A stretch of DNA of 62,750 bases from Candidatus Undinarchaeales archaeon (GTDB taxonomy: Archaea > SpSt-1190 > JASMDC01), in NCBI GenBank assembly GCA_030753015.1, contig JASMDC010000019.1, positions 1-62,750 of the forward strand. Reading direction: 5' to 3'. Positions 4,917 to 57,720 of the stretch are shown here, in pieces (positions within the stretch are counted from its first letter, which is position 1; each line of letters starts with the position of its first letter). Position numbers and translations under genes: made by a program. The notes under the pieces were generated by a model that had not been told where the DNA came from, ran no database searches, and saw only the letters and a list, made by a program, of their open reading frames with translations.

Positions 4917-4965
4917 GGTTCGCGTCCTCCTCAGGAAGGGGGACCAAAGCATAAAAATGGACCCA

Positions 4966-8571: not shown

Positions 8572-8683
8572 ACTAAGAAACGGGTCTGTATGCAATAAAT
8601 ACCTTTCCCCCCAAGCGCTGCGAAACGGGGCTCACGCTTATAAGCATGGACGGCCACCGAGGTGCCCGGCTCCCTGCCCACGG

Positions 8684-21276: not shown

Positions 21277-21659
21277 TCCTATGTACCCCTGGCAGCGGTT
21301 AGCAGGGTCCGGTGCTTAAAAACATTTCGCTTACGGCCGGAAGTAGGAGAGTATAATGCAGGCGCTCATGTCGTTCGGGGGGGACGATAATATCCGGAAA
21401 CGTGAATCGTCCACTCAATCTTTATAACCCATGAAGGGGAATATAATGACATGCTCGACCAGGGCATGCCCGCGTTCGATGGGCGGCTCTCCCACTATCA
21501 GGAGACAGGGGAGTGCCCAACCTCGTTGAACGCCCGTAACGAGGATTCTGACGACCTCTCCGGACTGCTCTGGGAGGACCTTTTCGCCATGCCATAGTGC
21601 CGCATGAGCCATTAAAATTTAAGCAATGACTCAGTTCTCTGTTGGTAGCAGGTAGACCC

Positions 21660-42189: not shown

Positions 42190-43824
42190 ATGCGGTCGCT
42201 GGGTGCCCTGTTGCTCGTCTTCCTTCTCCTCGCCATGGTGGAGGCCGCCGAGCCCGTTGTGAAGTACAGCGGGGCTTCCTTCGATGACAGCCTTTATACG
42301 GGAGAGACGAGCGTGATGCAGGTAAAGGTCACCTCCACTTACGACACCGGTAACGCGCCCAATGTTAACGTCATCCTGGACGCCGCCGAGTCCGGTGGCA
42401 AGCTCAAGCTCTACCGCATCACGTCGCGCGCTTTCACCAAGCGCACCATCCCCTGCTCGGACGCCGCGTACAACCGTCACGAGAACATGAACGTTGCGCT
42501 CACAAAGGGCGTCAACATGTTCCTCTACGCCATCCAGCCATGCGAGAACGTGTTGCCGGGCACCTATGCCCTGGAGTTCAAGGTGGACGGTACAGCCGTC
42601 GTGGAAGAGATAACGGCCAAGGTGCAGTCCCCTATACGGATCTCGGTATCGGCCGGCACCGTCAGGTTGGGCGCTGCTAAGACAATGACCGTCACTATCA
42701 TCAATCGCGGGAACGAGCTTCTGGAGAACGTAGCGATCGAGTTCGCAAGCCCGTTGCCCGGTAAGATCACCATCAAACCCACACGTATCCGGCTGGACGA
42801 GAACCTGCCCCTCAAGGCATCGACGAAGTTCGAGGTGACGGTGAACTCCACACTGGACACCCCTGCCATCGAGTATCCTCTGAACGTGTACGCGTCCTAC
42901 CGGACATTCGAGACCGTGACCACGGTGCGCGAGCCCATCCCGGACAAGGTCATCAAGGTGATCCAGGGTGACAATCCCAAGCTTGACCTGGCCGTACGGG
43001 ACCCGGCCGACATCAACGTGGAGGAGCCCAAGTTCGCCTCCGTTCTTGGTAAGGAGTTCTCCGTGGCGTTCCCCCTCAAGAACATCGGGAAGGGGCAAGC
43101 AGAGAAGTGCACTGTGGAGCTCACCATGCCCCACGGTGTGTTCGTACCCACCAACGTCTCCCGTCCGTACGAGTTCCGTGAGCTTGTCACCGAGGACATG
43201 CTCGTCATCGACATGGGGACACTGGAAGGGGGCGACGAGGGAGATGTCCAGGTCATCTTCCTACCCCTCCTGGTCGAGACCACTCCTCAGGGCACCACTG
43301 AGGTCGACGTCCTGGCCCGGTGCCTGAACATGGCAGAAAAGGAGATGAAGAGCAGGGGTATGACCCTGAAGGTCGGCCTCAAGTTCCCGGAGCCCGAGTT
43401 CGATCTGGGTGCGGACGTACCCGACACAGTGGTCGAGCCTGAGAGCTTCATCACCGCCAAGGTGGCCCTGAAGACACTGGAGTCCCAGAAGTGCACTCTC
43501 CGTGTGAAGTGGCCCATCTACCTCCATTACATGGACACGCTGGGCAGGTTCCAGTGGAGCGCCAATCCCGAGGTGAACGGGACCTACGAGAAGACGCTGC
43601 GGCTCAAGAGCTCCGCGGAGCACCGTTCGACCTCGGACCACGACATCCAAGTCACCGCCACCTGCAAGAACAGCCTTAATGTGACCGCGTCCCAGGAACG
43701 ACGGATCGCTCTACACTACGTCTCGCCCGGTGGACAGCAGGACCTGATCGTTTACGGTATCGTGGGGCTGGGCGCCGTACTGGTCGTGCTTATCGTGCTC
43801 TTCCAGCTAACCAAGAATAGCTAG
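42190..43824 (+). CDS. Secreted cell-surface protein with a C-terminal TM anchor
   Basis: It has a Sec signal (MRSLGALLLVFLLLAMVEA), Ig/CARDB-like beta-rich repeats, and a C-terminal TM (LIVYGIVGLGAVLVVLIVLF). A TATA-like TTTTTAATATTT lies about 21 nt before the ATG. The 3' end overlaps convergently with the prepilin peptidase gene. Confidence 0.55.
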   Translation: MRSLGALLLVFLLLAMVEAAEPVVKYSGASFDDSLYTGETSVMQVKVTSTYDTGNAPNVNVILDAAESGGKLKLYRITSRAFTKRTIPCSDAAYNRHENMNVALTKGVNMFLYAIQPCENVLPGTYALEFKVDGTAVVEEITAKVQSPIRISVSAGTVRLGAAKTMTVTIINRGNELLENVAIEFASPLPGKITIKPTRIRLDENLPLKASTKFEVTVNSTLDTPAIEYPLNVYASYRTFETVTTVREPIPDKVIKVIQGDNPKLDLAVRDPADINVEEPKFASVLGKEFSVAFPLKNIGKGQAEKCTVELTMPHGVFVPTNVSRPYEFRELVTEDMLVIDMGTLEGGDEGDVQVIFLPLLVETTPQGTTEVDVLARCLNMAEKEMKSRGMTLKVGLKFPEPEFDLGADVPDTVVEPESFITAKVALKTLESQKCTLRVKWPIYLHYMDTLGRFQWSANPEVNGTYEKTLRLKSSAEHRSTSDHDIQVTATCKNSLNVTASQERRIALHYVSPGGQQDLIVYGIVGLGAVLVVLIVLFQLTKNS

Positions 43825-44457
43825 GCGAAAGGGATCCCCGAGCAGCAGGTTCGCTAATACCGAAACGAGGAGGAACGGCGCCATCGGGATCCGCAGTTCC
43901 TGTCCCTCGAGCCTGAAGAGCATGAGCAGCGCCGTGGCAGCTGCGAAGAGCACCGGGACCAGAGCTGTCGTGACATCGCCGTGCAGGAGGAGGAATAGCG
44001 TCGCGCCGATGAGCATGCCCAGGGGCGCGTCTCGTCTGCGGAAGGCCGGTCGGTTTCCTTCGCGCACGACCTGCCAGACGTACCACGCCAGGCCGACGAC
44101 CTGGGCGAGTAGGACGGCGAGCACCAGCACTGCTACGGGGAAGGGGAGGATGGCAGGAAGACGGATCACTACACCGTCGTGGACGAAGCCCTGGACCCTA
44201 AGGGGCGAGAGTAGGCAGAGGGCGCACACCAGCTTCACATCAGCGCCCCCGATGCACCGGGCCCGGTACCACAGGAACACGAGACCGAGCATCAGGAGGT
44301 TTACGGAGAACTGGTCGGGATCATGTCCGATGATTAGATAGGCCACCGCGCCTATCGCTAGGAGCGCATCGGTGATGAGCGGGCGGACCTCGCCCGTGCG
44401 CAGGTCGTCGAGGGAGGCCGCGGCCAGGCCGGCCACGAGCGCGTACAGGCGCCACAC
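43807..44457 (-). CDS. A24-family prepilin peptidase (FlaK/PibD/EppA-like), short form, the last gene of the class III signal-peptide operon
   Basis: The first catalytic Asp motif is SLDDLRTGEVRP and the second is IGGADVKLV (GGxDxK). It has 5-6 TM helices. The GTG start is 1 nt after the upstream gene's stop. Confidence 0.75.
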   Translation of the reverse strand: MWRLYALVAGLAAASLDDLRTGEVRPLITDALLAIGAVAYLIIGHDPDQFSVNLLMLGLVFLWYRARCIGGADVKLVCALCLLSPLRVQGFVHDGVVIRLPAILPFPVAVLVLAVLLAQVVGLAWYVWQVVREGNRPAFRRRDAPLGMLIGATLFLLLHGDVTTALVPVLFAAATALLMLFRLEGQELRIPMAPFLLVSVLANLLLGDPFRLAILG

Positions 44458-44458
44458 G

Positions 44459-46708
44459 CTACTTCCACACCTCGAGGTTGAGCACGCCCGCGCCCCTACC
44501 GCCCCGGGGCGCTACGACTCGGTTGACTGACACCACACCGTACTTTGCCTGAGTGGACGGGATGCAGCCGAAGTCCGGGTTCTGACAGTTCGCCATCCCC
44601 TCGGGCTGCTCGCCCACCTCTTGAGCAGGATCTGGATCGGTCATGAAGGGCTCGGCTTGGTATTGTGGATCGTAGCAGAATGTCTCACAGCTCCCCTTAT
44701 CCTCGATACCGCGGACCACGCACACGGCCGGATCGACCTCCGGGTCCCACTCACCGCCGACATCCTCCCCCTCACAGAACGCCGGGTTCATCCCCACGGA
44801 CGTAACTGTGCACCGGCCACCCGGCCCTTCGCCGGGATCGTTCCACGCCCACGCGGTCGTAAGGTGCTCACATGCTTGGAGGGAATCGGCGGCGAGCAAA
44901 CACTCGTCGTTCACCCAGGAACCTCCGACGTCGGGATCGAGGCAGTCAACATCGTTCTCGATCTTCACGGCCACGCATCGCGGATCGGGCAGGTCCTCGG
45001 TCCATTCCGTGTTGCCCGCGGCCTCGCAGGTCTGCTCGTCAGAGATGAGCCAGATAAAACAGGCCGGATCGTTCCAGACGCCGTTGATACCCTCACACGT
45101 TGCCTGGTCAGGCGCTTCTGCGGGAAGTGTCCTGCAGTACTCGGTAGGGAGCCATTCGGCCTCAGCCAACGCGCCCTCGCACGTTGTCTGGTCGGGAACG
45201 GTCGGGAGGAGGCAATCGCCCCGCTCATCATCCCAGAACGTAAGGTACTGCCCGGGATCATCGCCCCAGAACGTGGCCTCCCCATCGAAGGTGGAAGTCG
45301 CCTCCAAGGCTACACCATACGTGCGAGTGGGCACGTCTCCGGTAAAAGTATCACTGTGCTGTATAGCGAACCGGCAGTTGTTGGTTTGCGTGAAGGTGCC
45401 CACGATAGTGGCGCCAGCGAAAGTCTCATCCCCCTGTCTGAAGGTGGTGTACGTGATGGTGGCGGTCACACCGCTAGCGTCCGACACGATCGTGATGGTC
45501 GGTTCCTCACCGGGATCGCATACATTCGGCGAATAGCAGATCGATGTTCCGGCCTGGCACGCGACCACGAGATCATGCTTGAACACAGGACGCCATGAAG
45601 GGGATCCGGGGGTCGCGGGATCCGTGTCGGCGTCGCCATCTGAAGCGACATAATAATCAATGAAGCTGACAAGGCTCCCGTCACACGCCGCCCCGACATG
45701 GACACGGAACCTCGACTCCACGATACCACAGTCGACCGTGTAGACCTCTGACGCACCGTCCATGGTCTGCTGGATAGTCCCCGCGGGGTGCTGTCCGGCC
45801 CCTACAGGGAACCCGCGGTTGGACGTCAGGTACGCATCGGCCGCTGCCCCGAGCGTACCGGAGGATATGTCGCTCTCATCGGGGATGATATCGAAGACGA
45901 CGGTCCCACTATCGTAGCTGTCCGGACAGTTCCCCGCTTTGCAGGCAACGATCGCCACTTGGAGATAGTCCCCGTTAGCATCGACTTTCAACTGGGTGAG
46001 ACCAACATCCCCTGGTGTGTAATCATCTGCCGTCGTCAAATGGAGACACATACCTCCGGGATTCTCCCGGTTGCATGTACCGGTCGAATGACCGGCCTCA
46101 TTGATCTGGAAGACCGCTGCGTTCCTGAGGATGATTCTTGTCAGTTCATTGTCTCCGTATAAGAAACTGCCGTCCATCTCGCGATACCCTGCGGATAAGA
46201 TGCGGCAGTTATTGGCATTTTCCGTCACCGGATCAGTGACAACGCACCGGGGTACTGACGGATCCTCGAACCACTGAGTGTCGACGGGTAACGTGATATC
46301 CCGGTCCACGCCCATGTCCTCGTCCTTGCATACATACATGCTCAGACGCCAGCCATAACCTAGGGAGCCTTCCGTGGTCATCAGAGGTGAGAAGAAGGTT
46401 GGCCCCACCAAGAAGGGATCTAATCCAGTTAGGGCCTCGTCGTCGATAACGTTCAGCCGGTCGATGCCCATCCCCTCGTCATAGTACGAGACACCGTACT
46501 GATAGCTGTTCGGTGAGGAGTCCACCATGGCGGTCATGAAGTCATCGGAGACCATCTTGAGGTCGTACACAGTCTCCCACTCGACCCGATCTTTATTCAC
46601 CTCGGTCTGTATCCGCTCCATGGCGGTGAAGAGAAGAACGAATATCCCTAGTGCGATGAGGATGTCGATGGAGAAGGTCTGCCCTCGTCGACGTCGTCCT
46701 AGCCTCAC
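44459..46708 (-). CDS. Giant class III signal-peptide (pilin-like N-terminus) protein, about 750 aa
   Basis: The GTG start at 46708 overlaps the upstream stop (GTGA). The N-terminus is MRLGRRRRG|QTFSIDILIALGIFVLLF. The protein has a large Cys-containing extracellular domain. Confidence 0.6.
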   Translation of the reverse strand: MRLGRRRRGQTFSIDILIALGIFVLLFTAMERIQTEVNKDRVEWETVYDLKMVSDDFMTAMVDSSPNSYQYGVSYYDEGMGIDRLNVIDDEALTGLDPFLVGPTFFSPLMTTEGSLGYGWRLSMYVCKDEDMGVDRDITLPVDTQWFEDPSVPRCVVTDPVTENANNCRILSAGYREMDGSFLYGDNELTRIILRNAAVFQINEAGHSTGTCNRENPGGMCLHLTTADDYTPGDVGLTQLKVDANGDYLQVAIVACKAGNCPDSYDSGTVVFDIIPDESDISSGTLGAAADAYLTSNRGFPVGAGQHPAGTIQQTMDGASEVYTVDCGIVESRFRVHVGAACDGSLVSFIDYYVASDGDADTDPATPGSPSWRPVFKHDLVVACQAGTSICYSPNVCDPGEEPTITIVSDASGVTATITYTTFRQGDETFAGATIVGTFTQTNNCRFAIQHSDTFTGDVPTRTYGVALEATSTFDGEATFWGDDPGQYLTFWDDERGDCLLPTVPDQTTCEGALAEAEWLPTEYCRTLPAEAPDQATCEGINGVWNDPACFIWLISDEQTCEAAGNTEWTEDLPDPRCVAVKIENDVDCLDPDVGGSWVNDECLLAADSLQACEHLTTAWAWNDPGEGPGGRCTVTSVGMNPAFCEGEDVGGEWDPEVDPAVCVVRGIEDKGSCETFCYDPQYQAEPFMTDPDPAQEVGEQPEGMANCQNPDFGCIPSTQAKYGVVSVNRVVAPRGGRGAGVLNLEVWK

Positions 46709-47181
46709 GGTCCGCACCTCCAGTCCTGAGTATCGATGCACAGGTACATAGTCTTCCCATCGCACTCCATCCTGATAGAGCGCTCGTACACGATGGGATT
46801 CGATGACGGGCTGAACTGGAGCGGGGCATAGGCCTCGTAAGGACCGAAGTACTGCATCTTCGTGTCGTAGACCACGTGTACATAGAACCGCACCGGCCCG
46901 ATCTCCGCCTCCCTGAGGGAATAGGTGAACATGGACGCGTCGCAGGTAATCGTCTTGTTGAGGCGACCTACGGCGAAGTACGGATTCATGGCGGCGGCCA
47001 CCCGCTCAGCCTCGTCGACAGTTCGCTGCTTGAGGGTCTCCTCACGACGATCGTTCCGATGGCCCATGAACTGAGACGCTAGTGCGCTGATGACCACCAT
47101 GTAGATCGCCAGAATGGTCATGAGCTCCAGCGCCAGCTGGCCTCGGTCCGACCGGAGGTGATTTCCCCTACTCATCCTCAT
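46705..47181 (-). CDS. Pilin-like class III signal-peptide protein (about 158 aa)
   Basis: The N-terminus is MRMSRGNHLRSDRG|QLALELMTILAIYMVVISALA (Gln+1, Glu+5). The start lies 2-8 nt after the upstream stop. Confidence 0.55.
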   Translation of the reverse strand: MRMSRGNHLRSDRGQLALELMTILAIYMVVISALASQFMGHRNDRREETLKQRTVDEAERVAAAMNPYFAVGRLNKTITCDASMFTYSLREAEIGPVRFYVHVVYDTKMQYFGPYEAYAPLQFSPSSNPIVYERSIRMECDGKTMYLCIDTQDWRCGP

Positions 47182-47710
47182 CCTCCTTGGGGACGCCCCC
47201 TTCGGCGAACAGGCGCACGCGTCCGTGCCGGCACTGTATCTTGAGCTTGACCGAACCGCAGATGAGGTTACCACAGGTGACCTCAAGCCTGTAGCGCTCT
47301 TCAGGCTCGTCTTTCCACTCACCGATGGAGAATGTGCCGAAGTGTCGCCCGTTCACGTAAGCGGATCCTGTCGGTGGTGCCTGATCGAACTGGGAACGCG
47401 GGACCTCCACCTCGATACCCTGCACCGCACCGCTAGCGAATTCCTCTTCACGGTGACGGACGTTGATATGACGTGACCATGTGAAGACCTGGAGGTGCTC
47501 GGTGTTGTGCGATCCACCGTCACAAGCGTGTTCCAGTGCTAAAGCGAGCTTCTTTGCTATGATCTCCGCACGCTTCGCGGAGTTACGGTCGGCGAGCCGC
47601 TGATTCTCCATCTGGGCCGTGAACAGGAGCATCGCGAAAAGCATGAGCACTGCGGACATGAGCGCCAGTGTTTCTAGTGGCACCTGTCCCCGTTGTGCCC
47701 GAACCATCAT
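47168..47710 (-). CDS. Pilin-like class III signal-peptide protein (180 aa)
   Basis: The N-terminus is MMVRAQRG|QVPLETLALMSAVLMLFAMLLF (Gln+1, Glu+5). There is an ATGA overlap with the upstream gene. Confidence 0.6.
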   Translation of the reverse strand: MMVRAQRGQVPLETLALMSAVLMLFAMLLFTAQMENQRLADRNSAKRAEIIAKKLALALEHACDGGSHNTEHLQVFTWSRHINVRHREEEFASGAVQGIEVEVPRSQFDQAPPTGSAYVNGRHFGTFSIGEWKDEPEERYRLEVTCGNLICGSVKLKIQCRHGRVRLFAEGGVPKEDEDE

Positions 47711-50601
47711 GTCGCACCCCCCATGACCTTGTCCACGACGACCATACCTTCGCCCGCCTGCCCGGACGTTTCGGGAAGGATCTGACAGCTCACTCCGATG
47801 GTCCCAATCCCTTTGAACACGATGTCGAAGGGTTCGGTCCGAGTCGTGAAGGTGACAGGTACCACTGAATCGGCCAATGGATCGTAAGCAGCGAACCGCT
47901 TGAACCCCTGCTCGCGCCGCACTTCGACCAGCGAGTCCTGGCCCACATCGAGGTCAAGAATCTCGAAGATCTCCTCACCGATGTAGAACTCGATCTCGGA
48001 TGCCGTACCCCACTCGGTCTGTGGGAACTGGACGCCTTTCACGTCGTCGGGATTGATCGTGGCCTTGAAACGCGCCGTCCAGACATTCGTGATTCCGCCA
48101 TTTTCACATGTTACGTCGGTGAGCCTGGTGAGGATGTAGCAGAAACCTGCGCCACCATTGGCATCCTGGTCCCAGAAACCATCGGCCTTGGTGCACAGTC
48201 GCTCGCTGTTCAGTGAGGCGTAAACGCAGCGTAGAGGTAGAGGATCGTCCTGCCAGACCCCGTTGGCCGTGCAGGCCCAATTGGATCGGTCGCCCGTGAG
48301 CACGTCGGCGGGCGTCTTGCATGTGCCGTCATCGGACACGACGGTGAGCGCTTGATTGTCCTTGTTGACGAAGGTCGCTCGCCGGAGTTCCCGGGGACTG
48401 TTGAGCTGTTCGGCACCGAGCATAACCTGGCGCAGGACGGTGGTCACAGCAAGGATTGCGGTCTCGTCGTCGGCCAGATGGAACCGGAACGTCCCCAACC
48501 GCGGGAACACTACCTCGACCGTCTCGTCAGGATCGAGGTCAAGTGATACCTTCGGGCCCCACATGACGGCCTCGTCTTCCTCGATGACACACAGGTCCTG
48601 AGTGACCCTGAGGTTATCGATACAGCCCAGCTCGTCGTGCCAGTGATAGCCCCCGCCGTGAAGCCAAGTCCCACCGGCCGGTTCACACGCCACCTGTGCG
48701 AAATCGCAGCTATCGGTGAAGCTCGACCATGTCCCGGCGGCGTCATCGCACGTCGTTGGGGTGAGCACGCACCCGAGCAGTTCCTCCCACTTACCACCAA
48801 GGTCCTTGCAGGATTCCTCGATGAAGTTGCATGAGCCCGGGCCCACTTCGCACTCCTCCGGTGAGGCCACGTCGGCTAGGGTACAGGACTCGATAGGGAC
48901 GCCCAAGTCGGCCCGAGGTTCGTTCCACTCGCCATTGATGGTACAGAGGCTCTCTGCCGTGTCGACACCGTTCGAGCATCCTAGCTCCTCGGACACTATG
49001 GATACGGACACCGTGTCGGGATTCCTGAAGACGACAACTCCTTCCAGAGGGATAGATACCATGCCAGGATCGATCATCAGCGGATGGACCTCGACCTCGC
49101 GAGTGTCCACGAACACCTCAAGGATGTCATCGGGTACTACGTCGGGATCGCCCGCGATACGGAACCGGTGAACTCCCGAGCGGGTGAAGGTCACCGTGTC
49201 GCTGTCAAGACCGCACGTGAGCACATTCTCGTTCCACACGCCCCCCGCAGTCTGGCAGTCCTCGACGGTGAGAAAGGCAGCAAGGGTGGGGTTCTTGAGA
49301 ATGTAGATACGGTCGTATTTGGGAACCCAGCCCCCGTCATCGCGCTCGCATGCTTCACGGGAGACGGCTCGTTCGGCGATATGACAACCTGCACCGGCGA
49401 CCATATCGCCTCCATTGTCCGTGCAGAGATCGACCACATCACAGATGAATGTGCCAACGTCCCACGAACCAACTGTACCAATGAGTGCATTGCAGGCATC
49501 CTCGGTGCCGATGTCAGCGAAGAACACGCACAGGTCCACGCCATCGGCCCCTGCGCCAGGTCTGAACCGTCCTGCCCGGTCCCGAGTGAGCGCGGGATCA
49601 CCCGCCCTGCAACGGTCCTGGCTCACTGAACGAGAGGGCATGTTGCACACAGTCCCCTCGTCACCGAGGTCCACGATCTCCCCGCCCGCAGCCTCGCACG
49701 GAACTCGGACGTCGCACAGGGGCTCATCGCCTTCGATCCACTCCCCTCCCTCGGCATTGCACGACTCCTGCGTGGCGAGCCCGTCGTAGAACTCGCACAG
49801 GTTGCCAGCATCGTCCGCTTGCTGATACGTCCCCTGCAGTCCGCACATGATCTCGGTGTCGCCGTAGTCGCTGGAGCACCACCCGTTCGCGGACACGAGC
49901 CTGATGCCACAGGATCCGCTCCCCTCGTGCCAAGCACCACCCGCATCATGACATGCCACCGGTGTCATGTCGCAGCCACCAAGGTCATTGTTCCAGACAC
50001 CGCCCGCATTCCCGCAGCCGGTCATGGCGAGCTCGCAGGTCGTGTCGCCCTCGTTCCAGATACCGCTCGCAGCACGACACTCGTCCTCTGCGAGGGTGCA
50101 GACGTCGGGACCTCCAACCCAGGTACCGCCCGCGATCCGGCATGCACGCTCGGCGAGCTCGCAGATGCTGTCTGCACCATCCCACGTACCCCCGGCGCCA
50201 TCCTCGCATGCAGTCTCGGCGTCCAGGTCGGGGAAGCTGTCATGGTTCTCGATGATAATGCGGTCGTTCACGGTAAGATCCGTGATCCGTGCAGGCCATA
50301 ACCCTTCACGTAGCAACTGGACGTTCCGTATCCTTGATGTCGCGTGCACACGCGTGTAAGGCGCGGCAGGGACCTTCACCAAGGCCATGTCGGGGGTCGC
50401 TGGCTCGCACACGGTCTCGATCGCCGTGGCGAGCTCGAACCCCATGGCCCCCAGATGCTTCTCGTCAGCAAGTTGTTCGAACGATATGTACTTCAGCTGC
50501 GCTTGGTAGAGCACGTAGCCGAACATCATGAATATGGCCGTGGCAAGGACCATGAACTCGAGGGCCACCTGACCACGGAAGCGCCTTCTCACGGACAGCA
50601 C
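47707..50601 (-). CDS. Giant class III signal-peptide protein (964 aa) with Cys/Trp/Gly repeats
   Basis: The N-terminus is MLSVRRRFRG|QVALEFMVLATAIFMMF (Gln+1, Glu+5). It has repeated CxxxxGGxWxxGxxxCxLA units of about 22 aa and is an acidic, Cys-rich extracellular protein. Confidence 0.65.
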   Translation of the reverse strand: MLSVRRRFRGQVALEFMVLATAIFMMFGYVLYQAQLKYISFEQLADEKHLGAMGFELATAIETVCEPATPDMALVKVPAAPYTRVHATSRIRNVQLLREGLWPARITDLTVNDRIIIENHDSFPDLDAETACEDGAGGTWDGADSICELAERACRIAGGTWVGGPDVCTLAEDECRAASGIWNEGDTTCELAMTGCGNAGGVWNNDLGGCDMTPVACHDAGGAWHEGSGSCGIRLVSANGWCSSDYGDTEIMCGLQGTYQQADDAGNLCEFYDGLATQESCNAEGGEWIEGDEPLCDVRVPCEAAGGEIVDLGDEGTVCNMPSRSVSQDRCRAGDPALTRDRAGRFRPGAGADGVDLCVFFADIGTEDACNALIGTVGSWDVGTFICDVVDLCTDNGGDMVAGAGCHIAERAVSREACERDDGGWVPKYDRIYILKNPTLAAFLTVEDCQTAGGVWNENVLTCGLDSDTVTFTRSGVHRFRIAGDPDVVPDDILEVFVDTREVEVHPLMIDPGMVSIPLEGVVVFRNPDTVSVSIVSEELGCSNGVDTAESLCTINGEWNEPRADLGVPIESCTLADVASPEECEVGPGSCNFIEESCKDLGGKWEELLGCVLTPTTCDDAAGTWSSFTDSCDFAQVACEPAGGTWLHGGGYHWHDELGCIDNLRVTQDLCVIEEDEAVMWGPKVSLDLDPDETVEVVFPRLGTFRFHLADDETAILAVTTVLRQVMLGAEQLNSPRELRRATFVNKDNQALTVVSDDGTCKTPADVLTGDRSNWACTANGVWQDDPLPLRCVYASLNSERLCTKADGFWDQDANGGAGFCYILTRLTDVTCENGGITNVWTARFKATINPDDVKGVQFPQTEWGTASEIEFYIGEEIFEILDLDVGQDSLVEVRREQGFKRFAAYDPLADSVVPVTFTTRTEPFDIVFKGIGTIGVSCQILPETSGQAGEGMVVVDKVMGGAT

Positions 50602-52301
50602 CTCTTACCGTTGCACGTGCGCATGGCATGCCTGATGAGCGGGTACACGCGCAGTACACGCAGGAAACATTCGTCGTCGACGGGACACCTTGTGAGTGTG
50701 TGATACCCGGCGTCGGTGTACGCATCGTCCGTGGCCCACTTATGCATGATTGTCGTGAAATTGTGGATGCCGCGCTGGTCCGGAAGGTCCTCAGCCAGTA
50801 TCTCCGCGAGAGATATTGTACTGCCGTCAGCCAGGTTGACCTGGTGGTAGTCCGTGGGGTAGAAATCGTTTGCTTCCATACGGCAGGCGATATTGTAGAA
50901 GGCCCATACGTCGAAATCAGCGAGATGATAATCGCATACGGTATCGCCCGATGACAGGTACTCATCTCCCACTCCCAGATGGACGGGGAGCTTCGTCACC
51001 ATGCTACCGTCCTCGCCAAGGAGCTCTATCTCTCCGTCGTACATGGTCGTGGGAAGCAGGCTGCTCAATCCGTTCTCCACGATTGTCTGGAACCTGCACC
51101 GGGAGCGCATAACGACGCCCTCTGCTGCTCCGAACGTATCAGGATCGTTGCCGTCTATCGCCAGTGAGTAAGCGCATGGATAGCATGTATCCACGGGATA
51201 CAGGTCGTCGTAATCGGTCTCACCGTGCGAGCACGCGCCGCATGGCGTGGCTTCCGCCTCCTCTGGCTCCTGAACCCCGCTGTAGAGACCGTACCAACTC
51301 TGTGGGTAGGTAAGGCCCGTGTCCTCGTCCACAGCAAAGAAACCCTCGATGAACTCATCATTTTCCGGATCAGTGTACCGCGAGCAGGTGTTGCTGATAT
51401 GGATTCCGAACGCCCGACGAAGGATGTCCCGCGGGTCCGGCGGTTCCGCACCTTCTTCGCCGCCTTCACCACCGCCTCCGCCGTCAATTTCACAGAACTC
51501 CTCGAAGGCGTGGCCCCGGGGGATACCGTAGGGCCCGAGGGTTAAATGGTCGCTGAGAATGCACATCCCAAGCTCTACCGCAGCGCAGAGCGACCGGGCA
51601 GGACCGCAGGCCTTCCCCGCCTCGCGTGCGTACGTTGCAAGTTTTGACATGTTCACCGCATAGTCGACGTTGACGTCCGGCAGCTCCATCTCGCAGCATC
51701 CTATGTTGTACCCCACTGGGGGTGCGTATGAGTTGTACTGTCCGATATCAATCTCTTCCAGGGTGAGCACTGGTTCGGGATCCCCCTCGACCTCAGGTGC
51801 AGGTTCGTCAGGATCGGCGGCGGGGGCGTTATCAGAGGGCTCGAACCGCAACCGTAGCCGGGGCATGCTCCTGAGCCGAGCGGCCACCTCACCCTTCCAG
51901 TCGTCGTCACCCGGACCATCGATCAACGGTGGGTATTGCTCGCGAGCAGCATCGACGATGGACTGGAAGTCATTGGGACAGTTCGTCCCGAGGTTCATGG
52001 TATCGTAACGATTGTTGAGCATGAGTGGCAGGTCCACGACGCTGTGGCCGAATAGCTCCCCGGGAACCCCGCTCCATGCACCAATAGCAGCGAATCCTCC
52101 ATCCACGACCCCTATCTCGAGAGCTGTCTTGTGATAACGAAGGAGATTGATAGCAGCGCGTTCCTCGAGGTCGATTGTGGCCCGTGCCGAGCGTGCCTGG
52201 TTGATCGTGGCCACTTCCAGCACTCCGTACGCGATGACGATGAAGATCGCCAGAGAGATGAATCCCTGCCGCTCGCGTCGGTCTACTCCCGCCATACGCA
52301 C
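50589..52301 (-). CDS. Class III signal-peptide protein (570 aa)
   Basis: The N-terminus is MRMAGVDRRERQG|FISLAIFIVIAYGVL. It overlaps the upstream gene by 18 nt. Confidence 0.6.
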   Translation of the reverse strand: MRMAGVDRRERQGFISLAIFIVIAYGVLEVATINQARSARATIDLEERAAINLLRYHKTALEIGVVDGGFAAIGAWSGVPGELFGHSVVDLPLMLNNRYDTMNLGTNCPNDFQSIVDAAREQYPPLIDGPGDDDWKGEVAARLRSMPRLRLRFEPSDNAPAADPDEPAPEVEGDPEPVLTLEEIDIGQYNSYAPPVGYNIGCCEMELPDVNVDYAVNMSKLATYAREAGKACGPARSLCAAVELGMCILSDHLTLGPYGIPRGHAFEEFCEIDGGGGGEGGEEGAEPPDPRDILRRAFGIHISNTCSRYTDPENDEFIEGFFAVDEDTGLTYPQSWYGLYSGVQEPEEAEATPCGACSHGETDYDDLYPVDTCYPCAYSLAIDGNDPDTFGAAEGVVMRSRCRFQTIVENGLSSLLPTTMYDGEIELLGEDGSMVTKLPVHLGVGDEYLSSGDTVCDYHLADFDVWAFYNIACRMEANDFYPTDYHQVNLADGSTISLAEILAEDLPDQRGIHNFTTIMHKWATDDAYTDAGYHTLTRCPVDDECFLRVLRVYPLIRHAMRTCNGKRCCP

Positions 52302-53536
52302 ACCTTCACCGTGACTACCTGCGGACAGGCCAGGGGCTGGACAAGCGGGGGATCTAGGTCATCACCGCAACTGTTCCGGCCCAGGTTGAGCCCACACAGG
52401 GTCACCTCGCGCTCCACGCAATACACGGTCCGCGGAGGTGGATCCGTGGGGATGTGACAGGGGCAGAAGAATCCAAAGGGATTGTCGCAGTCGTTACTGG
52501 GATCGTCATCGTACCGACTGTTGTCGAAGCATCGTCGGAACTTAATGAATCGGGCCGGATCGTCATCGGCCACTATATCCGGTAAGTCGGGCACGACAGA
52601 TATAATCCTATTCGCTGCTCCCGCGATGCCCTCTGCTCCTTCCAGCGCCTCCCTTACAGTGCGCGCTGCATAGGTCCGGGGTGTAGGCGGATTCGCCTCG
52701 GGAGGATCCTTCTCGGGGGGGAAAACCTTGGGGAAAAGCTTCGGAATCAACCGATCAAGCTCGCGGTCCTCGGCCATCTGGTCGGCCGTCGCCAGTTCAG
52801 GATTAGTCGCGAAGAAGTTGATACCATAAGTGCTCACGTACCTGACCGTGGGATCCTCGGCGTCCTCGTTGATCCTCTGGGCGAACCGACCGAGGCCTGG
52901 CGGGTCCATGCGCCATTCACCATCATCTACTACAGTGCAATCCTCTGCGGTCGTCACATCCGCTCGTACACACTCACCGACACCACCGTCCCAGGTCCCA
53001 CCGGCCGTCGTGCAGTCCGGATCATTGTCGATAGTGGTCACAACGCACCGTGGATTAGGATCCTCTACCTCCACGATTTCCCGTTTTGCGTATTCGGTAA
53101 GATAGATACGGTACGCGCCTGCGAGCTCGTTATCGATATCCCCCGCGTCGATAGCTACACGATTGGCCTCGTACCACGCAGCATAGCTCATTCCACCCGC
53201 TCCGTCGTCCACCGCTCCCGGTAATAATCCCAAAAGCCACGGGTCCTCGTACTGTATGAAGAACCGGTACACGGGGTACATCCCGGCGATGGTCTCCAGA
53301 CCCATGCTTCCGCAGCTGCGCTCGGGCGGGAACGCGAAGGGGCAGCTCTGGACATGCTCGGCCGACTGGCTGCACGCGTTGATGATGTCATGGGCCAGAC
53401 GCTGGGCATTGAGCGCCTCTGCGTTGGGATAAGGGAAGTGGTGGACGGCCACCGATGAGAGGATGAGCACCGACAGCGTCATGGTGAGGAGGGCGTCCAT
53501 GGTGAAGATGAAGCCCGCCCGCTCACGTCGCTCCAT
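52283..53536 (-). CDS. Class III signal-peptide protein (about 418 aa)
   Basis: An internal Met start 2 nt after the upstream stop gives MERRERAG|FIFTMDALLTMTLSVLIL. Confidence 0.6.
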   Translation of the reverse strand: MERRERAGFIFTMDALLTMTLSVLILSSVAVHHFPYPNAEALNAQRLAHDIINACSQSAEHVQSCPFAFPPERSCGSMGLETIAGMYPVYRFFIQYEDPWLLGLLPGAVDDGAGGMSYAAWYEANRVAIDAGDIDNELAGAYRIYLTEYAKREIVEVEDPNPRCVVTTIDNDPDCTTAGGTWDGGVGECVRADVTTAEDCTVVDDGEWRMDPPGLGRFAQRINEDAEDPTVRYVSTYGINFFATNPELATADQMAEDRELDRLIPKLFPKVFPPEKDPPEANPPTPRTYAARTVREALEGAEGIAGAANRIISVVPDLPDIVADDDPARFIKFRRCFDNSRYDDDPSNDCDNPFGFFCPCHIPTDPPPRTVYCVEREVTLCGLNLGRNSCGDDLDPPLVQPLACPQVVTVKVCVWRE

Positions 53537-53538
53537 GT

Positions 53539-56500
53539 TCACTCTTCCTCCTCTCCTTCCTCTTCGGGGAGAGGTACGATCAAAGCGCTGTCCAGTTCCT
53601 CCAGTGTGGGCACCGGGTCCACCGGTACGAGGCAGGAGGTGAACCCGATGGAGTTGAAGAAGTTGTTGCACAGCGAAGTGGATATGGGCTCGCGGACGGT
53701 GCAGTACTGTACCATGTTCTCCCGCATGGAGATCGCCAGGTCCGCCAGCGGTGCAAAGCTGTTCTCTTCGCCCTCGTACGAGCACTCGAGCTCTGCCGGC
53801 GTCATAGGTGGGTAGAGAGCACGAAGGAGGTAGTTATCCTGATCGAGACCACACTGGGCGAGGTTCTCTGTGATCTCGCACTGGTCGTCCTCATCAGGTG
53901 CCGGGTAGGTGATAAGGTCGTCGAAGAACACGTCCAGGTCGCGTCCGAGACAGACGTTCTCCTCGCAGTCGCCGTGGCCGGGCAGGGTAGCGAACGTGGC
54001 GCACTCCTTAACGTCGTCGCATTCGCTCCCGGCCCGTTTCCCGAGGGCGCACCAGTGCGTGTGGACGCCACCGACGGGATCGGGTTCTTCGGGATTCAGG
54101 CAATAGTAGGGCGTGGGGAATGATCCGTCGTTGATGGCGGTCGCGTACTGGTCGGCCAGCCATTCACAGCAGTCCACGTCGCTGTTACAGCAGGGGAGGG
54201 GCGCTGGTTGGACCAAGTGCGCAGCGCAGATCGCGGCTTCGTCACAGTCAGCAGCTGGAAGGAACAGGGCATGAGTACATCCCTGTTCACAATTATCCGC
54301 GAGATCGTCAAGGTCCTGGCACTGTGTGAATTCGCACGTGTCACCAGGGCAATCAGGATCGAAGCAGTCTGTCGCCACACAGTTGGCGTTCGGATCGTCC
54401 AGGTCGTCTGTGAGACTGAACACGCGGCAGAACTTGCAGTGGTCCGTCTCCATGTCCGGGCAGCACATCCCCAGGTCGAGGTCGATGCACATCCCGGATC
54501 CCTCGCACAGATGCGTCCGGTTCCCCTCGTCCCCCCACCGCTCAGCAAGTTCCTGCTGGAACGGACTGTCGTCTATTGCGTCTGGTGCCCAGGGATCGTT
54601 CATCGGATCGGGCGCCAGGGCGTTCATCTCGTCAGAATAAGGAGCGCGAATGACATAGGGTATATCCATCTCTAGGCACGTGTAAACACGGGGAAGTTCG
54701 TCCTCATCGGTTCCAAGTATCGTCCGCGTCACCACATCCAGGCTCTCAAGGGATTCCGGAGCGCAACATTGGCCGTCCTCGCCCGGAAGCCCGGCATCGA
54801 TCTCCTCGGCAATGAGCGTAGCCTTGAGATTTGCGTAGTACGACTCTTTCTGAGCCCGGTAAGTCGAGTTCAGTATGTCCCCCCCGGCGTTAGCTAGGGT
54901 TTGGAGGGTAACATCCTCGAACTCCTGGGGATGGACGCATGAATACCACTGTCCGCCCATGCAGTAGTGGTCGCGGTAGTCACTGTCAGCGTTCCAACCG
55001 ACACCGAACACGTCCTCAAGGTTCTGGGTGAGCGCCGGATCCGGGAGGCACATGGGCAGCGGATCGCCGAACCACTCCACACCGTAGGCGAATCCAGTGC
55101 AGGTATCCTCGGTCACGATGAGGGGGACCACGCAGTGTAGAAAGCCCGCGTCCCACTGGCCGTTGTAGGGTGCGCTCTCGCAGGTCTCCCGGTCCCACTC
55201 CGCCTCCTCGTCTTCGGCCACGATACAACGGGGATCGGGATCCGCGCACGTGAACTGGAGCAGGCGGAGATGGTCGGGATCGGTATAGGCGTCCAGAGTG
55301 CTGTTCCATGAGCAGCGGGAGAAGTCCTTGCACCCCACATCGTACCTCTCGCATGTCGCAGTATGAGCACCTGCATCGTAATTGCATCGCTGGACGCGCC
55401 ACTGGCTGTTCCCTTCCGCGTCAACGTGGCACCGGTCGCAGTTCTTGCTAAAGGTGTCCGTGTCAGCCGCGTCAAGCATTACGCGACAATCATCGAGGTC
55501 GTCGGGATCATTGTCAGGATCGTTACAGGCATAATGCCATTGAGCGTCCTCCAAACACTCCTCCGTGACCTCTATTTCTCCGGGGGGTGGGAGGGGTTCG
55601 TCCGAGCACACCACGGCACCGTTGCCCATATCAACATCACACCGGGCGTCTCTGGCCACGCCGCTTGTAGAGCAGTACTTGCACGTGATACCGTCCGGGT
55701 TCGGATCATCACCATCGGGCTCGATACACGCATCCTCGATGGGCGGTGCGCCGGGAGGCGGCCCGAGGGTCAGCGGATCGCCGGACTCGACATAGTAGCA
55801 CTGGATCGGTAGCACATCTTCGGTCGGCAGGGGATCGCAGGTTATGGGATCGAGGAGATCTCCGTACACGGCGGGCATCACGCACCGACGCGTCTCGCCG
55901 ATAGCGAATCGGGCGTTGTCGACATCGTTGATGCAGCGCGAGCACTGTACGGTCCCGCCCTCCTGTGAACCGCACTGGAACGTCCTCTCCCCATCGGCGA
56001 GGACGGGGAGGCAGTCGTCCTCCTCATTGGATTCGTCACACTCCGCCAGACCATCCACTCGAGAACAGCCCGAGGTCACGATACTGCCGTCACTCTCGCA
56101 GAATTTACAATCGATGTCATCGAGGTTCTCTGCATCACATGCGGCTTCCAGCGGAGCGTTCCCCGAGTAGCACGAGTCGGTGGACTGCTGGCACTTGTGC
56201 AGGTTGCCGTTGCACCGTACCTGCTGCGCCACGACCCCTTCGTCGACAAGACACTTGTCACAGTACACAATATTGTTCTCAGCGTCCACCTGACAGGGAT
56301 TCTCGTTGGGATTGCAGTCCTTCTGCAGTTCCCCGACCGCCAAGAAGGCCCTGCCGGTGACATCCGATATCAGACATGTATCAGCCATCAGCTTGCCAGT
56401 CAGGTCGCAGTAGAAGCACAGCCTCTTGTCCTCGTCCCCGCCGCTGCAGGCCACCGCTGCGGTAACGGGACCGGTGTAGTACGGGACCTCCGTCTCGATG

Positions 56501-56901
56501 CACCCACTGCCTCCGGCCAATTTGTCCATCACGTCACACCTGCGCTGCTGGACAGCGCCGGTATCCAGGCATGCCTCCTCGCAGTAGGCGCTCCCCGTGC
56601 CCGAGTCCCGCTTGCACGATTCTGCGAAACCGCAGTCGGTCGCCACGGGCGGTGAACAGGTGCAGGTGCCATCGCCCTCGTTGATGACGCAATCCCATTC
56701 ATTGAGGACGGCGTCAAGTGTACATCCAGCGCAGCTGAAGGGAGGACCTGTGTCGTAGTCGCAGGTGACAGGATTACTATCGACCAGCTGGATAGTGTTC
56801 CCCGGTCCAAGAACGCATGCAGCGCTGACCGGTGTGAAGAGAATCAGAAATAGTAGAAGGAGGGTGATGACTGGCGAATCTCGCACGCCATCACCCTTCA
56901 T
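53539..56901 (-). CDS. Giant (about 1120 aa) Sec-secreted, highly acidic, Cys-rich protein embedded in the class III operon
   Basis: It has a Sec signal (MKGDGVRDSPVITLLLLFLILFTPVSAA) and well over 100 Cys. It has no TM. The C-terminus is PLPEEEGEEEE. Confidence 0.6.
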   Translation of the reverse strand: MKGDGVRDSPVITLLLLFLILFTPVSAACVLGPGNTIQLVDSNPVTCDYDTGPPFSCAGCTLDAVLNEWDCVINEGDGTCTCSPPVATDCGFAESCKRDSGTGSAYCEEACLDTGAVQQRRCDVMDKLAGGSGCIETEVPYYTGPVTAAVACSGGDEDKRLCFYCDLTGKLMADTCLISDVTGRAFLAVGELQKDCNPNENPCQVDAENNIVYCDKCLVDEGVVAQQVRCNGNLHKCQQSTDSCYSGNAPLEAACDAENLDDIDCKFCESDGSIVTSGCSRVDGLAECDESNEEDDCLPVLADGERTFQCGSQEGGTVQCSRCINDVDNARFAIGETRRCVMPAVYGDLLDPITCDPLPTEDVLPIQCYYVESGDPLTLGPPPGAPPIEDACIEPDGDDPNPDGITCKYCSTSGVARDARCDVDMGNGAVVCSDEPLPPPGEIEVTEECLEDAQWHYACNDPDNDPDDLDDCRVMLDAADTDTFSKNCDRCHVDAEGNSQWRVQRCNYDAGAHTATCERYDVGCKDFSRCSWNSTLDAYTDPDHLRLLQFTCADPDPRCIVAEDEEAEWDRETCESAPYNGQWDAGFLHCVVPLIVTEDTCTGFAYGVEWFGDPLPMCLPDPALTQNLEDVFGVGWNADSDYRDHYCMGGQWYSCVHPQEFEDVTLQTLANAGGDILNSTYRAQKESYYANLKATLIAEEIDAGLPGEDGQCCAPESLESLDVVTRTILGTDEDELPRVYTCLEMDIPYVIRAPYSDEMNALAPDPMNDPWAPDAIDDSPFQQELAERWGDEGNRTHLCEGSGMCIDLDLGMCCPDMETDHCKFCRVFSLTDDLDDPNANCVATDCFDPDCPGDTCEFTQCQDLDDLADNCEQGCTHALFLPAADCDEAAICAAHLVQPAPLPCCNSDVDCCEWLADQYATAINDGSFPTPYYCLNPEEPDPVGGVHTHWCALGKRAGSECDDVKECATFATLPGHGDCEENVCLGRDLDVFFDDLITYPAPDEDDQCEITENLAQCGLDQDNYLLRALYPPMTPAELECSYEGEENSFAPLADLAISMRENMVQYCTVREPISTSLCNNFFNSIGFTSCLVPVDPVPTLEELDSALIVPLPEEEGEEEE

Positions 56902-56914
56902 ACCTGCGGCCCGT

Positions 56915-57505
56915 TTAACACGACGGCATACGCTGAGCGGCAGCGTTACCCATGATGATGTTCGGCCTGCCTCCCGTGTAGTCGAAGGAGATATACAACG
57001 TGGTACACTGGGGACCCATAGTGCCGCCGGCGTCAAAAGCGTGGCACTCTCCGTCCTGGAGGTTAGTGTAGTCGTCGGCAATGTTATCCGGCTCCGTCTG
57101 GGTCTGGATCTGGAATCCCAGAGTCTCGGCACCATCGGTAGCTATCTTACCGGCCATGCCGTTGGGCGGGTCACCGCCACCCTGGTCGAACAGGTCATCG
57201 TCGCATGATGTAGGCATAGGGATCGTGAAGCATGTGAAATCCCTGCCCAGGCCCTTGCCGCGTGCCACACATTGTCTTATGGCCCTATCGATGTCGTCCG
57301 CGCACCCGAAGGCCGGGTCCACTGCGTACTGCTCGGACTGGGGCAGCGAACGGAGACAGAGCCACCGCTTCATCTGGAACGCGACGAAGGCCGCGATCGC
57401 CAGACCCGCCGTGGCGATGATTAGATATTCGAGCGGGATGGCACCGCGCTCATCGCTGGCCATCCTCCTGAGAAGCATCTTCTTGCTCAGCTTGTACTTT
57501 CTCAT
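56915..57505 (-). CDS. Pilin-like class III signal-peptide protein (196 aa), the first gene of the operon
   Basis: A CAGATAAAAAG box about 25 nt upstream suggests a leaderless ATG. The N-terminus is ...RRMASDERG|AIPLEYLIIATAGLAIAAFVAF (Glu+5). The C-terminal domain has paired Cys. Confidence 0.65.
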   Translation of the reverse strand: MRKYKLSKKMLLRRMASDERGAIPLEYLIIATAGLAIAAFVAFQMKRWLCLRSLPQSEQYAVDPAFGCADDIDRAIRQCVARGKGLGRDFTCFTIPMPTSCDDDLFDQGGGDPPNGMAGKIATDGAETLGFQIQTQTEPDNIADDYTNLQDGECHAFDAGGTMGPQCTTLYISFDYTGGRPNIIMGNAAAQRMPSC

Positions 57506-57720
57506 ACTATTATGGAGACACGTATGCTTTTTATCTGTTACGCAAGGCGCCGCGCACCGACCAATCGAAGGTAGGAGAGCATACGCTGATGTGAAGGTCC
57601 GTGCCCAGCGCAGGATAGAGCCCCGGTGATGCGCTCAAGGGTCCTTGTCCTGACTGGGCGAGGGGGGATAGTCCCCCGACTGGTCGGGAGGGGCGTTCGC
57701 CGACGGATCGGTCCGGACGC

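Follow-up and report, generated by a model that had tools for sequence, protein, structure and literature searches.

What would an archaeon build from a single run of genes that specifies three pilin-sized and four giant proteins with prepilin-like N-termini, a 1120-residue secreted protein and a prepilin peptidase, with no assembly ATPase among them? We examined this question for positions 43807-57505 of contig JASMDC010000019.1 (assembly GCA_030753015.1, labelled Candidatus Undinarchaeales archaeon), of which the whole 62,750-nucleotide (62.75-kb) stretch analysed is referred to as the window. Our analysis makes it somewhat probable that this nine-gene operon supplies an archaeal type IV filament of Epd/Tad-like kind with its structural and adhesive components, including a PilY1-like partner, and with a prepilin peptidase of its own, the motor being encoded elsewhere. 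The genes, named g1 to g9 in order of transcription, are as follows, where a slash marks the predicted cleavage junction.

g1, 56915-57505, minus strand: prepilin-like protein of 196 aa (amino acids); DERG/AIPLEY, with Ala at +1
g2, 53539-56901, minus strand: Sec-secreted non-pilin protein of 1120 aa
g3, 52283-53542, minus strand: 419 aa, class III-like N-terminus; RERAG/FIFTMD
g4, 50589-52301, minus strand: 570 aa, class III-like N-terminus, with the ATG at 52295 as an alternative start; RERQG/FISLAI
g5, 47707-50601, minus strand: modular pilin-like protein of 964 aa; RFRG/QVALEF
g6, 47168-47710, minus strand: prepilin-like protein of 180 aa; AQRG/QVPLET
g7, 46705-47181, minus strand: prepilin-like protein of 158 aa; SDRG/QLALEL
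g8, 44459-46708, minus strand: modular pilin-like protein of 749 aa, its open reading frame (ORF) remaining open up to 46765; RRRG/QTFSID, with Gln at +1 and Asp at +6
g9, 43807-44457, minus strand: A24 aspartic peptidase of 216 aa, the last gene

These nine consecutive, co-directional genes occupy 13.7 kb and are separated, from g1 to g9, by +13, -4 (GTGA), -19 or -13, -13 or -4, -4 (ATGA), -14, -4 (GTGA) and +1 nt, which bears out the single, tightly coupled unit described in an earlier note made from the sequence alone. That note's ATGA and GTGA overlaps were recovered, as were its three pilin-sized products (158-196 aa) and four giants (419-964 aa), whereas the 18-nt overlap that it placed inside the operon joins g9, at its 3' end, to the 3' end of the convergent gene at 42190-43824. 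The same nine genes were found in identical order in related loci (L001/L002, L003-L005, L006 and L007/L008) representing approximately four related metagenomic lineages, with protein identities to the window of 46-97% at these loci and of 38-97% across the lineages that keep the nine-gene synteny; since both gene set and gene order are kept across these lineages, the nine ORFs can be regarded as real genes.

Upstream of g1 we also identified a 24-nt block, AACAGATAAAAAGCATACGTGTCT (57516..57539, minus strand; 11-34 nt upstream of the g1 ATG), which does not vary among the five loci compared, L006, L007 and the distant L001 included. In L006 and L007 an IS605-family (TnpB-like OrfB) insertion replaces all sequence beyond the block. 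The block is likely to be a TATA/BRE (B recognition element) promoter element giving rise to a leaderless or short-leader operon transcript. The inserted OrfB/TnpB gene (Cas12f-like; 926-2230 of L007, and at the same position in L006) stands directly upstream of the intact block in this one lineage. Acquisition by horizontal transfer or as a mobile element was considered and rejected, because the operon, at 57-63% GC in 2-kb intervals and in a window of approximately 62%, falls just short of its flanks in GC content, and because relatives share the gene order around it. Neither Rfam nor tRNA scans gave a match anywhere in the window.

As the earlier note had proposed, seven products carry a basic leader, a Gly and a hydrophobic stretch: g1 and g3-g8 each contain exactly one hydrophobic segment, located N-terminally after a basic leader ending in Gly. 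Its count of four products combining Gln at +1 with Glu at +5 requires adjustment, as Gly at -1, Gln at +1 and Glu at +5 occur together in g5, g6 and g7, but not in g1, which has Ala at +1, nor in g8, where Gln at +1 is paired with Asp at +6. Among orthologues, position -1 is either Gly or Ala, and the Gln+1/Glu+5 pairing is conserved. A strict motif (a basic residue, Gly or Ala, then Gln, Ala or Phe, an acidic residue at +5 or +6, and 16 subsequent hydrophobic residues) matched only seven times in the six frames of the window; five of these matches are the starts of g1, g5, g6, g7 and g8, and the remaining two comprise the start of a large protein at 134-1930 and one spurious occurrence. At the level of this motif, which is kept in their orthologues, g1, g5, g6, g7 and g8 would thus qualify as class III signal-peptide proteins. 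A looser regular expression for class III signals was dropped as unspecific, since Sec signals in other parts of the window match it too.

Among the small proteins, g1 (MRKYKLSKKMLLRRMASDERG/AIPLEYLIIATAGLAIAAFVAF; deposited at NCBI as hypothetical protein MDP7080022.1) comprises a 21-aa leader, a Flp-like G/xxxxEY site and a mature chain of 175 aa with 8 Cys, and is the best-conserved structural gene of the operon, retaining 71% identity to its most distant orthologue compared with 46-62% for g2-g8. The g6 and g7 products begin with MMVRAQRG/QVPLETLALMSAVLMLF and LRSDRG/QLALELMTILAIYMVVISAL, respectively, and possess 4 Cys each; the g7 motif was also found upstream of a truncated gene call in L001. 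Alignment of the three proteins revealed a shared arrangement of Arg-Gly before the junction, Leu at +4, Glu at +5, a Cys-Asp pair directly behind the long helix and a further Cys close to the C-terminus, a Cys pattern which we take to recall the disulfide-bounded region of bacterial pilins. AlphaFold2 modelling was poor for g1 (pLDDT, the predicted local distance difference test, of 45), whereas the best of five models of g6 (pLDDT 71; predicted template modelling score, pTM, 0.62) has an N-terminal helix of 51 residues and, after it, seven strands. A Foldseek search of the g6 model against the PDB produced no significant match; among the top 50 non-significant chains, 11 are type IV pilins or pseudopilins (EpsI, GspI, XcpV, GspK, Streptococcus sanguinis PilA and PilB, Thermus PilA4 and PilA5, a Thermus competence pilin, PilX and CFA/III pilin), a representation that is suggestive, not proof, of a pilin-like fold in this model. 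PDB sequence searches with profiles of g1/g6/g7 and of g5 yielded no matches. The g1 product may be the major subunit; alternatively, by analogy with EpdE of Methanococcus maripaludis, a small major pilin might be encoded elsewhere, no small Flp- or EpdE-like pilin gene being present in the window.

The giant products combine conserved N-termini with divergent remainders. In g3 (RERAG/FIFTMDALLTMTLSVLILSSVAV; GTGA overlap with the g2 stop), g4 (RERQG/FISLAIFIVIAYGVL), g5 (RFRG/QVALEFMVLATAIFMMF) and g8 (RRRRG/QTFSIDILIALGIFVLLF), the first approximately 100 residues are the most conserved, with 58-78% invariant columns (70-78% across orthologues of g3), and the middle regions are variable, with large insertions and deletions. 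For example, g4 orthologues range from 562 to 727 aa, and the g8 orthologue of L001 is 397 aa long compared with approximately 750 aa elsewhere, its middle being absent. The start of g8 was placed at the GTG at 46708, which forms the GTGA overlap with the g7 stop and is where orthologue gene calls begin. The g5 product is organized as a pilin-type N-terminal module followed by 13 repeats and strand-rich regions, and its residues 4-77 are homologous to residues 2-75 of g6 (hhalign probability 96%), so that at least one giant shares its N-terminal module with a pilin-sized protein.

The largest product, g2, has the Sec-type signal (...FTPVSA/ACV...), the lack of any other transmembrane (TM) segment and the acidic, Glu-rich tail (EEEGEEEE; isoelectric point, pI, 4.05) that the earlier note had reported, and contains 92 Cys, fewer than the more than 100 stated there. 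Its orthologues vary from 1120 to 1972 aa, with insertions spanning up to 241 alignment columns, and its best-conserved part is the C-terminal stretch of approximately 170 aa. Neither g2, nor its 1386-aa and 1972-aa orthologues, nor g4 matched any Pfam or NCBIfam family. We propose that g2 is a PilY1-like partner or an adhesin, a resemblance that lies in context and architecture only.

Several compositional features point to the same location for these proteins. Mature Cys counts are even in 8 of 8 window proteins and 30 of 32 orthologues, and the giants have a pI of approximately 4. Furthermore, N-glycosylation sequons are depleted in g1-g8 (6 observed, 17.1 expected from shuffled sequences) and absent from g1, g3, g5, g6 and g8, which is unusual for archaeal surface proteins. 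Together with the variable middle regions, these features indicate that g1-g8 are extracellular and disulfide-stabilised.

Closer inspection of the giants revealed a repeat unit of approximately 21 residues, C-x3-GG-x-W-x6-C, present in 13 copies in g5, six near the C-terminus of g8, three in g2 and one in g3; by hhalign, the part of g2 that carries the repeats was also linked to its equivalents in g3 and g8. The repeat itself matched no Pfam or NCBIfam family. An exhaustive HMMER search of 1.84 billion cluster representatives with a g5-family profile (E ≤ 0.001) returned 20 matches, comprising two full-length relatives, one fragment and a remainder that match in the repeat regions only. Ten of the repeat-only matches were scanned against Pfam and NCBIfam, of which five (388-726 aa) start with a bacterial prepilin site of GFTLIE type (e.g. 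QHG/FTLVEM). With the TIGR02532 prepilin cleavage/methylation model, four of them (P0019, P0022, P0023 and P0031) score above the cut-off and one (P0035) is borderline. These five bacterial proteins share a conserved GspG/GspH-like N-terminal module (...NGQPDISGFVADMGRLP...) and carry many copies of C-x3-GG-x-W-x6-C. Other repeat-only matches, both scanned and unscanned, include lipoproteins and other secreted proteins. The occurrence of the repeat on bacterial prepilin-type and secreted proteins marks it as a generic extracellular module that is joined to pilin N-termini in Bacteria too, and lends sequence-level support to a predicted "modular pilin" organization of g5 and g8. Taken together with the g5-g6 homology and the pairing of conserved N-termini with variable middles, it also strengthens the earlier suggestion that the giants are adhesins or minor pilins.

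The archaeal family itself is rare. Only four to eight relatives each of g5 (four), g9 and the small pilins were found among 5.8 billion proteins, scans of metagenome contigs returned none for g9 and a single 1.6-kb contig for g1, and public records of this lineage name all operon genes "hypothetical protein".

Pfam and NCBIfam scans covering all nine products, their orthologues and N-terminal fragments identified A24 as the sole family above cut-off, two sub-threshold N-terminal matches aside. The g9 product passes Pfam Peptidase_A24 (PF01478) narrowly (28.2 bits, cut-off 26.5). Its D18 (in DLRTG) and D73 (in GGADVKL) are invariant in six orthologues and have aligned counterparts in another A24 peptidase encoded in the window, which substantiates the earlier description of a 216-aa A24 peptidase with both catalytic Asp motifs. 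It is the last operon gene in every locus, and a homologue has been named "Flp pilus assembly protein protease CpaA" by JGI; no PDB sequence match was found, and NCBIfam FlaK scores only 17.5 bits. A Kyte-Doolittle scan predicts approximately 5-6 hydrophobic segments, as opposed to the 9 TM segments of EppA (PMC4858521), and g9 is therefore not EppA-type in architecture. The second peptidase, at 8681-9832 (plus strand), is of FlaK/PibD type with an archaeal Arc_PepC C-terminal domain, so that two class III signal peptidases are encoded within 36 kb. This pairing matches the division of labour in M. maripaludis, which has both FlaK and EppA (PMC3875500).

From these observations we derive the following model. 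A promoter upstream of g1 would drive a single, largely translationally coupled mRNA, in keeping with the observed gene packing and conserved block. Seven products would be inserted into the membrane by their single N-terminal hydrophobic helix, and g9, acting on the cytoplasmic side, would cut off their short basic leaders behind the Gly (or, in some orthologues, Ala). The mature N-terminal helices would then be pulled out of the membrane and packed together as the core of a filament by an ATPase and platform whose genes lie elsewhere; g6, g7 and perhaps g1 may be the core or priming pilins. The g3, g4, g5 and g8 products would act as modular pilins, their conserved N-terminal modules embedded in the filament, probably at or near its tip, and their variable modules (acidic, stapled by disulfides, and with the C-x3-GG-x-W-x6-C repeats among them) exposed for binding. 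Finally, the Sec-secreted g2, which has no pilin module, might dock through its conserved C-terminal region in the manner of PilY1/PilC on bacterial minor pilins. Precedents for individual parts of this model are available: large adhesin-like proteins and Cys-rich components occur in archaeal type IV pilus (T4P) loci (PMC4858521), and a C-terminal plug of PilC/PilY1 binds a minor pilin (bioRxiv 10.64898/2026.09.18.752573).

Comparison with described systems supports, as the most likely reading, that the operon works like the pilin modules of known type IV filaments. The Epd locus of M. maripaludis likewise unites class III proteins with a dedicated prepilin peptidase in one operon, has substrates with Gly at -1, Gln at +1 and Glu at +5 (here g5, g6 and g7), and has its ATPase and platform outside the operon and a separate FlaK-type peptidase in the genome (PMC3875500; bioRxiv 10.64898/2026.04.22.720090); its 11 genes also include accessory or adhesin-like ones. 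The present operon differs in the size and topology of g9 (216 aa, approximately 5-6 TM segments rather than nine), in its failure to reach the Class_IIIsignal/DUF361 cut-off, and in its four 419-964 aa pilin-like proteins with Cys repeats among Cys-rich, sequon-poor products; no operon product is homologous in sequence to any described Epd component. Among bacterial type IVa systems, the fimU-pilVWXY1E operon of Pseudomonas and PilHIJK with PilC of Neisseria provide the counterpart of minor pilins accompanied by one very large Sec-secreted non-pilin; PilY1/PilC are carried at the pilus tip by their C-terminus (bioRxiv 10.64898/2026.09.18.752573), and g2 is most conserved in its C-terminal 170 aa or so. 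Unlike these bacterial operons, the archaeal one includes the peptidase, its "minor pilins" are giant, and g2 has no PilY1, PilC or DUF2341 similarity. S. sanguinis PilB and PilC resemble g5, with its g6-like N-terminus, in that adhesion modules are grafted onto a pilin module. The graft here is an uncurated disulfide repeat of approximately 21 residues rather than a von Willebrand factor A or lectin domain, and four such proteins are encoded per operon; we found no description of archaeal modular pilins in the literature.

Tad/Flp systems (Flp, TadE, TadF, TadG and TadV/CpaA) share with the operon a short A24 peptidase that has no methyltransferase domain, and the G/xxxxEY processing motif of g1 and the RGQxALEF-type N-termini of g5, g6 and g7 appear Flp-like and TadE-like, respectively. 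In contrast, there is no Flp_Fap or TadE Pfam match, no TadA, TadB, TadC or TadZ gene nearby, and g1 is a 175-aa mature protein with a globular part rather than a helix of Flp size. Mature Flp-sized proteins have approximately 50-70 aa; the smallest mature product of the operon has 144 aa. The Sulfolobus bindosome resembles the operon in having large (approximately 500 aa or more) class III proteins that are A24-processed and surface-displayed, as is predicted here, and differs from it in that the operon contains pilin-sized paralogues and has no substrate-binding domains or transporter genes. Because the sequence and architecture criteria of the DUF361/EppA, Flp/TadE, PilY1 and bindosome families were applied and none fits, the operon cannot be placed in any of them.

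A number of results weigh against a type IV filament. First, the cut-offs of Class_IIIsignal (PF04021, formerly DUF361), TadE, Flp and N_methyl were reached by no product: g5 scores 11.4 bits with Class_IIIsignal at full length and 16.7 bits as an N-terminal fragment (cut-off 23.7), g1 scores 13.9 bits with DUF4244 (cut-off 27), and g3, g4, g6, g7 and g8 did not match the pilin families at all. The DUF361-like character suggested in the earlier note is thus not supported by the hidden Markov model (HMM) scores, and the class III assignment rests on motif, position and conservation rather than on family membership. Second, g3 and g4 have no charged residue at -2 and are consequently less canonical, a distant g4 orthologue having Arg at this position. 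Third, g2 has no detectable similarity to PilY1, to PilC (the Neisseria_PilC/PilY1 propeller) or to DUF2341. Finally, no FlaI/PilB/TadA ATPase and no FlaJ/PilC/TadC platform was found in the annotated window, in approximately 10 kb beyond its left end (reached through an exact-protein look-up, in which the right-end protein of the window had no record) or in the flanks of the related loci, which extends the absence already seen in the operon. The conclusion drawn from it, that the locus is non-canonical, is not sustained, as the 11-gene M. maripaludis operon (EppA, EpdA-C) also excludes the ATPase, two platform genes and the major pilin, which are encoded elsewhere (PMC3875500); a missing ATPase does not make a locus non-canonical for archaea.

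The missing motor is nevertheless one argument for an ATPase-independent display of bindosome or pseudopilus type, in which the g9-processed proteins would stay anchored by their helices or form a short stub and, with g2, constitute a disulfide-rich adhesive coat. Most subunits (419-964 aa) are also far too bulky for a homopolymer, and approximately 1355 archaeal genomes contain class III binding proteins without a type IV filament locus, even though 1019 of these genomes have retained a class III signal peptidase (bioRxiv 10.64898/2026.04.22.720090). However, no substrate-binding domain was found in any product, so that the bindosome alternative raised in the earlier note gains no positive support, and the three pilin-sized paralogues with a common helix and Cys architecture would have no obvious role in a simple coat. 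Moreover, the Sulfolobus bindosome, the only such display studied, is listed among archaeal T4P and grouped by its secretion ATPase (subclade 4I; PMC4858521), and pili have been reported for all Undinarchaeota metagenome-assembled genomes (PMC7414124). We therefore regard anchored display as a possible but rather unlikely alternative to the filament.

It is far less likely that g1 and g3-g8 are ordinary anchored or Sec-dependent surface proteins left uncleaved by A24 enzymes, with g9 a neighbouring protease acting on another substrate and the prepilin resemblance a product of signal-anchor composition. Such a coincidence would be compatible with the unreached pilin and class III HMM cut-offs, with the matches of the loose motif to Sec signals elsewhere in the window, and with the mere 1.7 bits by which g9 exceeds its Pfam cut-off. 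It does not readily account for RG/Q-x-x-L-E in three paralogues and G/xxxxEY in g1, for the retention of Gly or Ala at -1 and an acidic +5 residue in orthologues, for the near restriction of the strict motif to operon gene starts, or for a g9 whose catalytic Asp residues are both invariant and whose place is always last in the operon. Equally improbable is a type II secretion-like pseudopilus, with g1 and g3-g8 as pseudopilins, that exports or pushes the giant acidic g2 through the envelope, since variable, repeat-rich modules on pilin-like proteins resemble exposed adhesins and not a piston, and we know of no type II secretion system of this kind in archaea, even though g2 is Sec-dependent and lies within the operon.

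Several neighbouring genes complete the picture of the locus.

42190..43824, plus strand: the convergent gene; its product is a surface protein of 544 aa that carries a Sec signal, a weak match of CARDB/NPCBM_assoc type and, at the C-terminus, a TM anchor

This gene always adjoins the operon in relatives, at constant length and with 69-89% identity. A functional association with the operon is possible; the adjacency proves nothing, because the whole neighbourhood is syntenic in relatives. A 598-aa product with a class III-like start (SRG/QGFIVEYFLSFALFLFVFVSVL) is encoded at 134-1930 (plus strand), 55 kb away from the operon. It belongs to no Pfam family and, unlike the operon products, contains only 3 Cys and is sequon-rich (10 N-x-S/T sites, 4.3 expected). 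Beside the second peptidase, the gene at 4966-8595 (minus strand) encodes a giant surface protein of approximately 1200 aa that has 176 Cys, long Cys-rich modules in tandem, a Sec signal and, at the C-terminus, a TM anchor, and that at 3327-5099 (minus strand) another of 529-590 aa with a similar C-terminal layout; neither belongs to a Pfam family. Approximately 3 kb to the left of the window, on an NCBI contig (L009, 14561-16987), lies a gene for an 808-aa Sec-signal protein with a DUF2341 domain, which Makarova et al. connected with PilY-like adhesins of clade 1 T4P loci in archaea; the gene comes after an IS605-family one (TnpB-like OrfB), and L010, with its alternative arrangement, does not contain it. 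Also identified were an IS110-family transposase with DEDD_Tnp_IS110 and Transposase_20 domains at 13537-14628 (plus strand) and, at 21642-25565 (plus strand), a 1307-aa product whose only family matches are eukaryote-centred (SNAP, 66.9 bits; Clathrin repeat, 48 bits; IFT140/172 tetratricopeptide repeat, TPR, 30.7 bits) and which is probably a TPR-like repeat protein.

The identity of the organism deserves comment. Public labels disagree, identical proteins being assigned to Candidatus Undinarchaeales and one relative to a Methanopyri archaeon. Described marine Undinarchaeales have a GC content of approximately 40-42% compared with 62% in the window, and the Undinarchaeales placement should therefore be treated with caution. 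The Undinarchaeales are a DPANN group whose partners are unknown (PMC7414124), and the genome holding the operon is probably small. A bolder and doubtful proposal is that the operon specifies a host-attachment organelle of this high-GC, Undinarchaeales-labelled lineage, either a pilus or an ATPase-independent stub, with a tip formed by four giant modular pilins and a PilY1-like partner, all stapled by the Cys-GGxW repeat that bacteria have also grafted onto pilins.

If the filament reading is true, it would extend modular pilins, and the tip complex of minor pilins with a giant non-pilin, from Bacteria to Archaea. The operon also points to an extracellular disulfide repeat, as yet uncurated, that is joined to pilin N-termini in Archaea and Bacteria alike. 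One small A24 peptidase encoded together with seven candidate substrates would also be useful for studies of class III signal recognition. Should the Undinarchaeales label prove right, the operon would represent a candidate cell-cell adhesion apparatus of a DPANN group, whose members are suspected symbionts.

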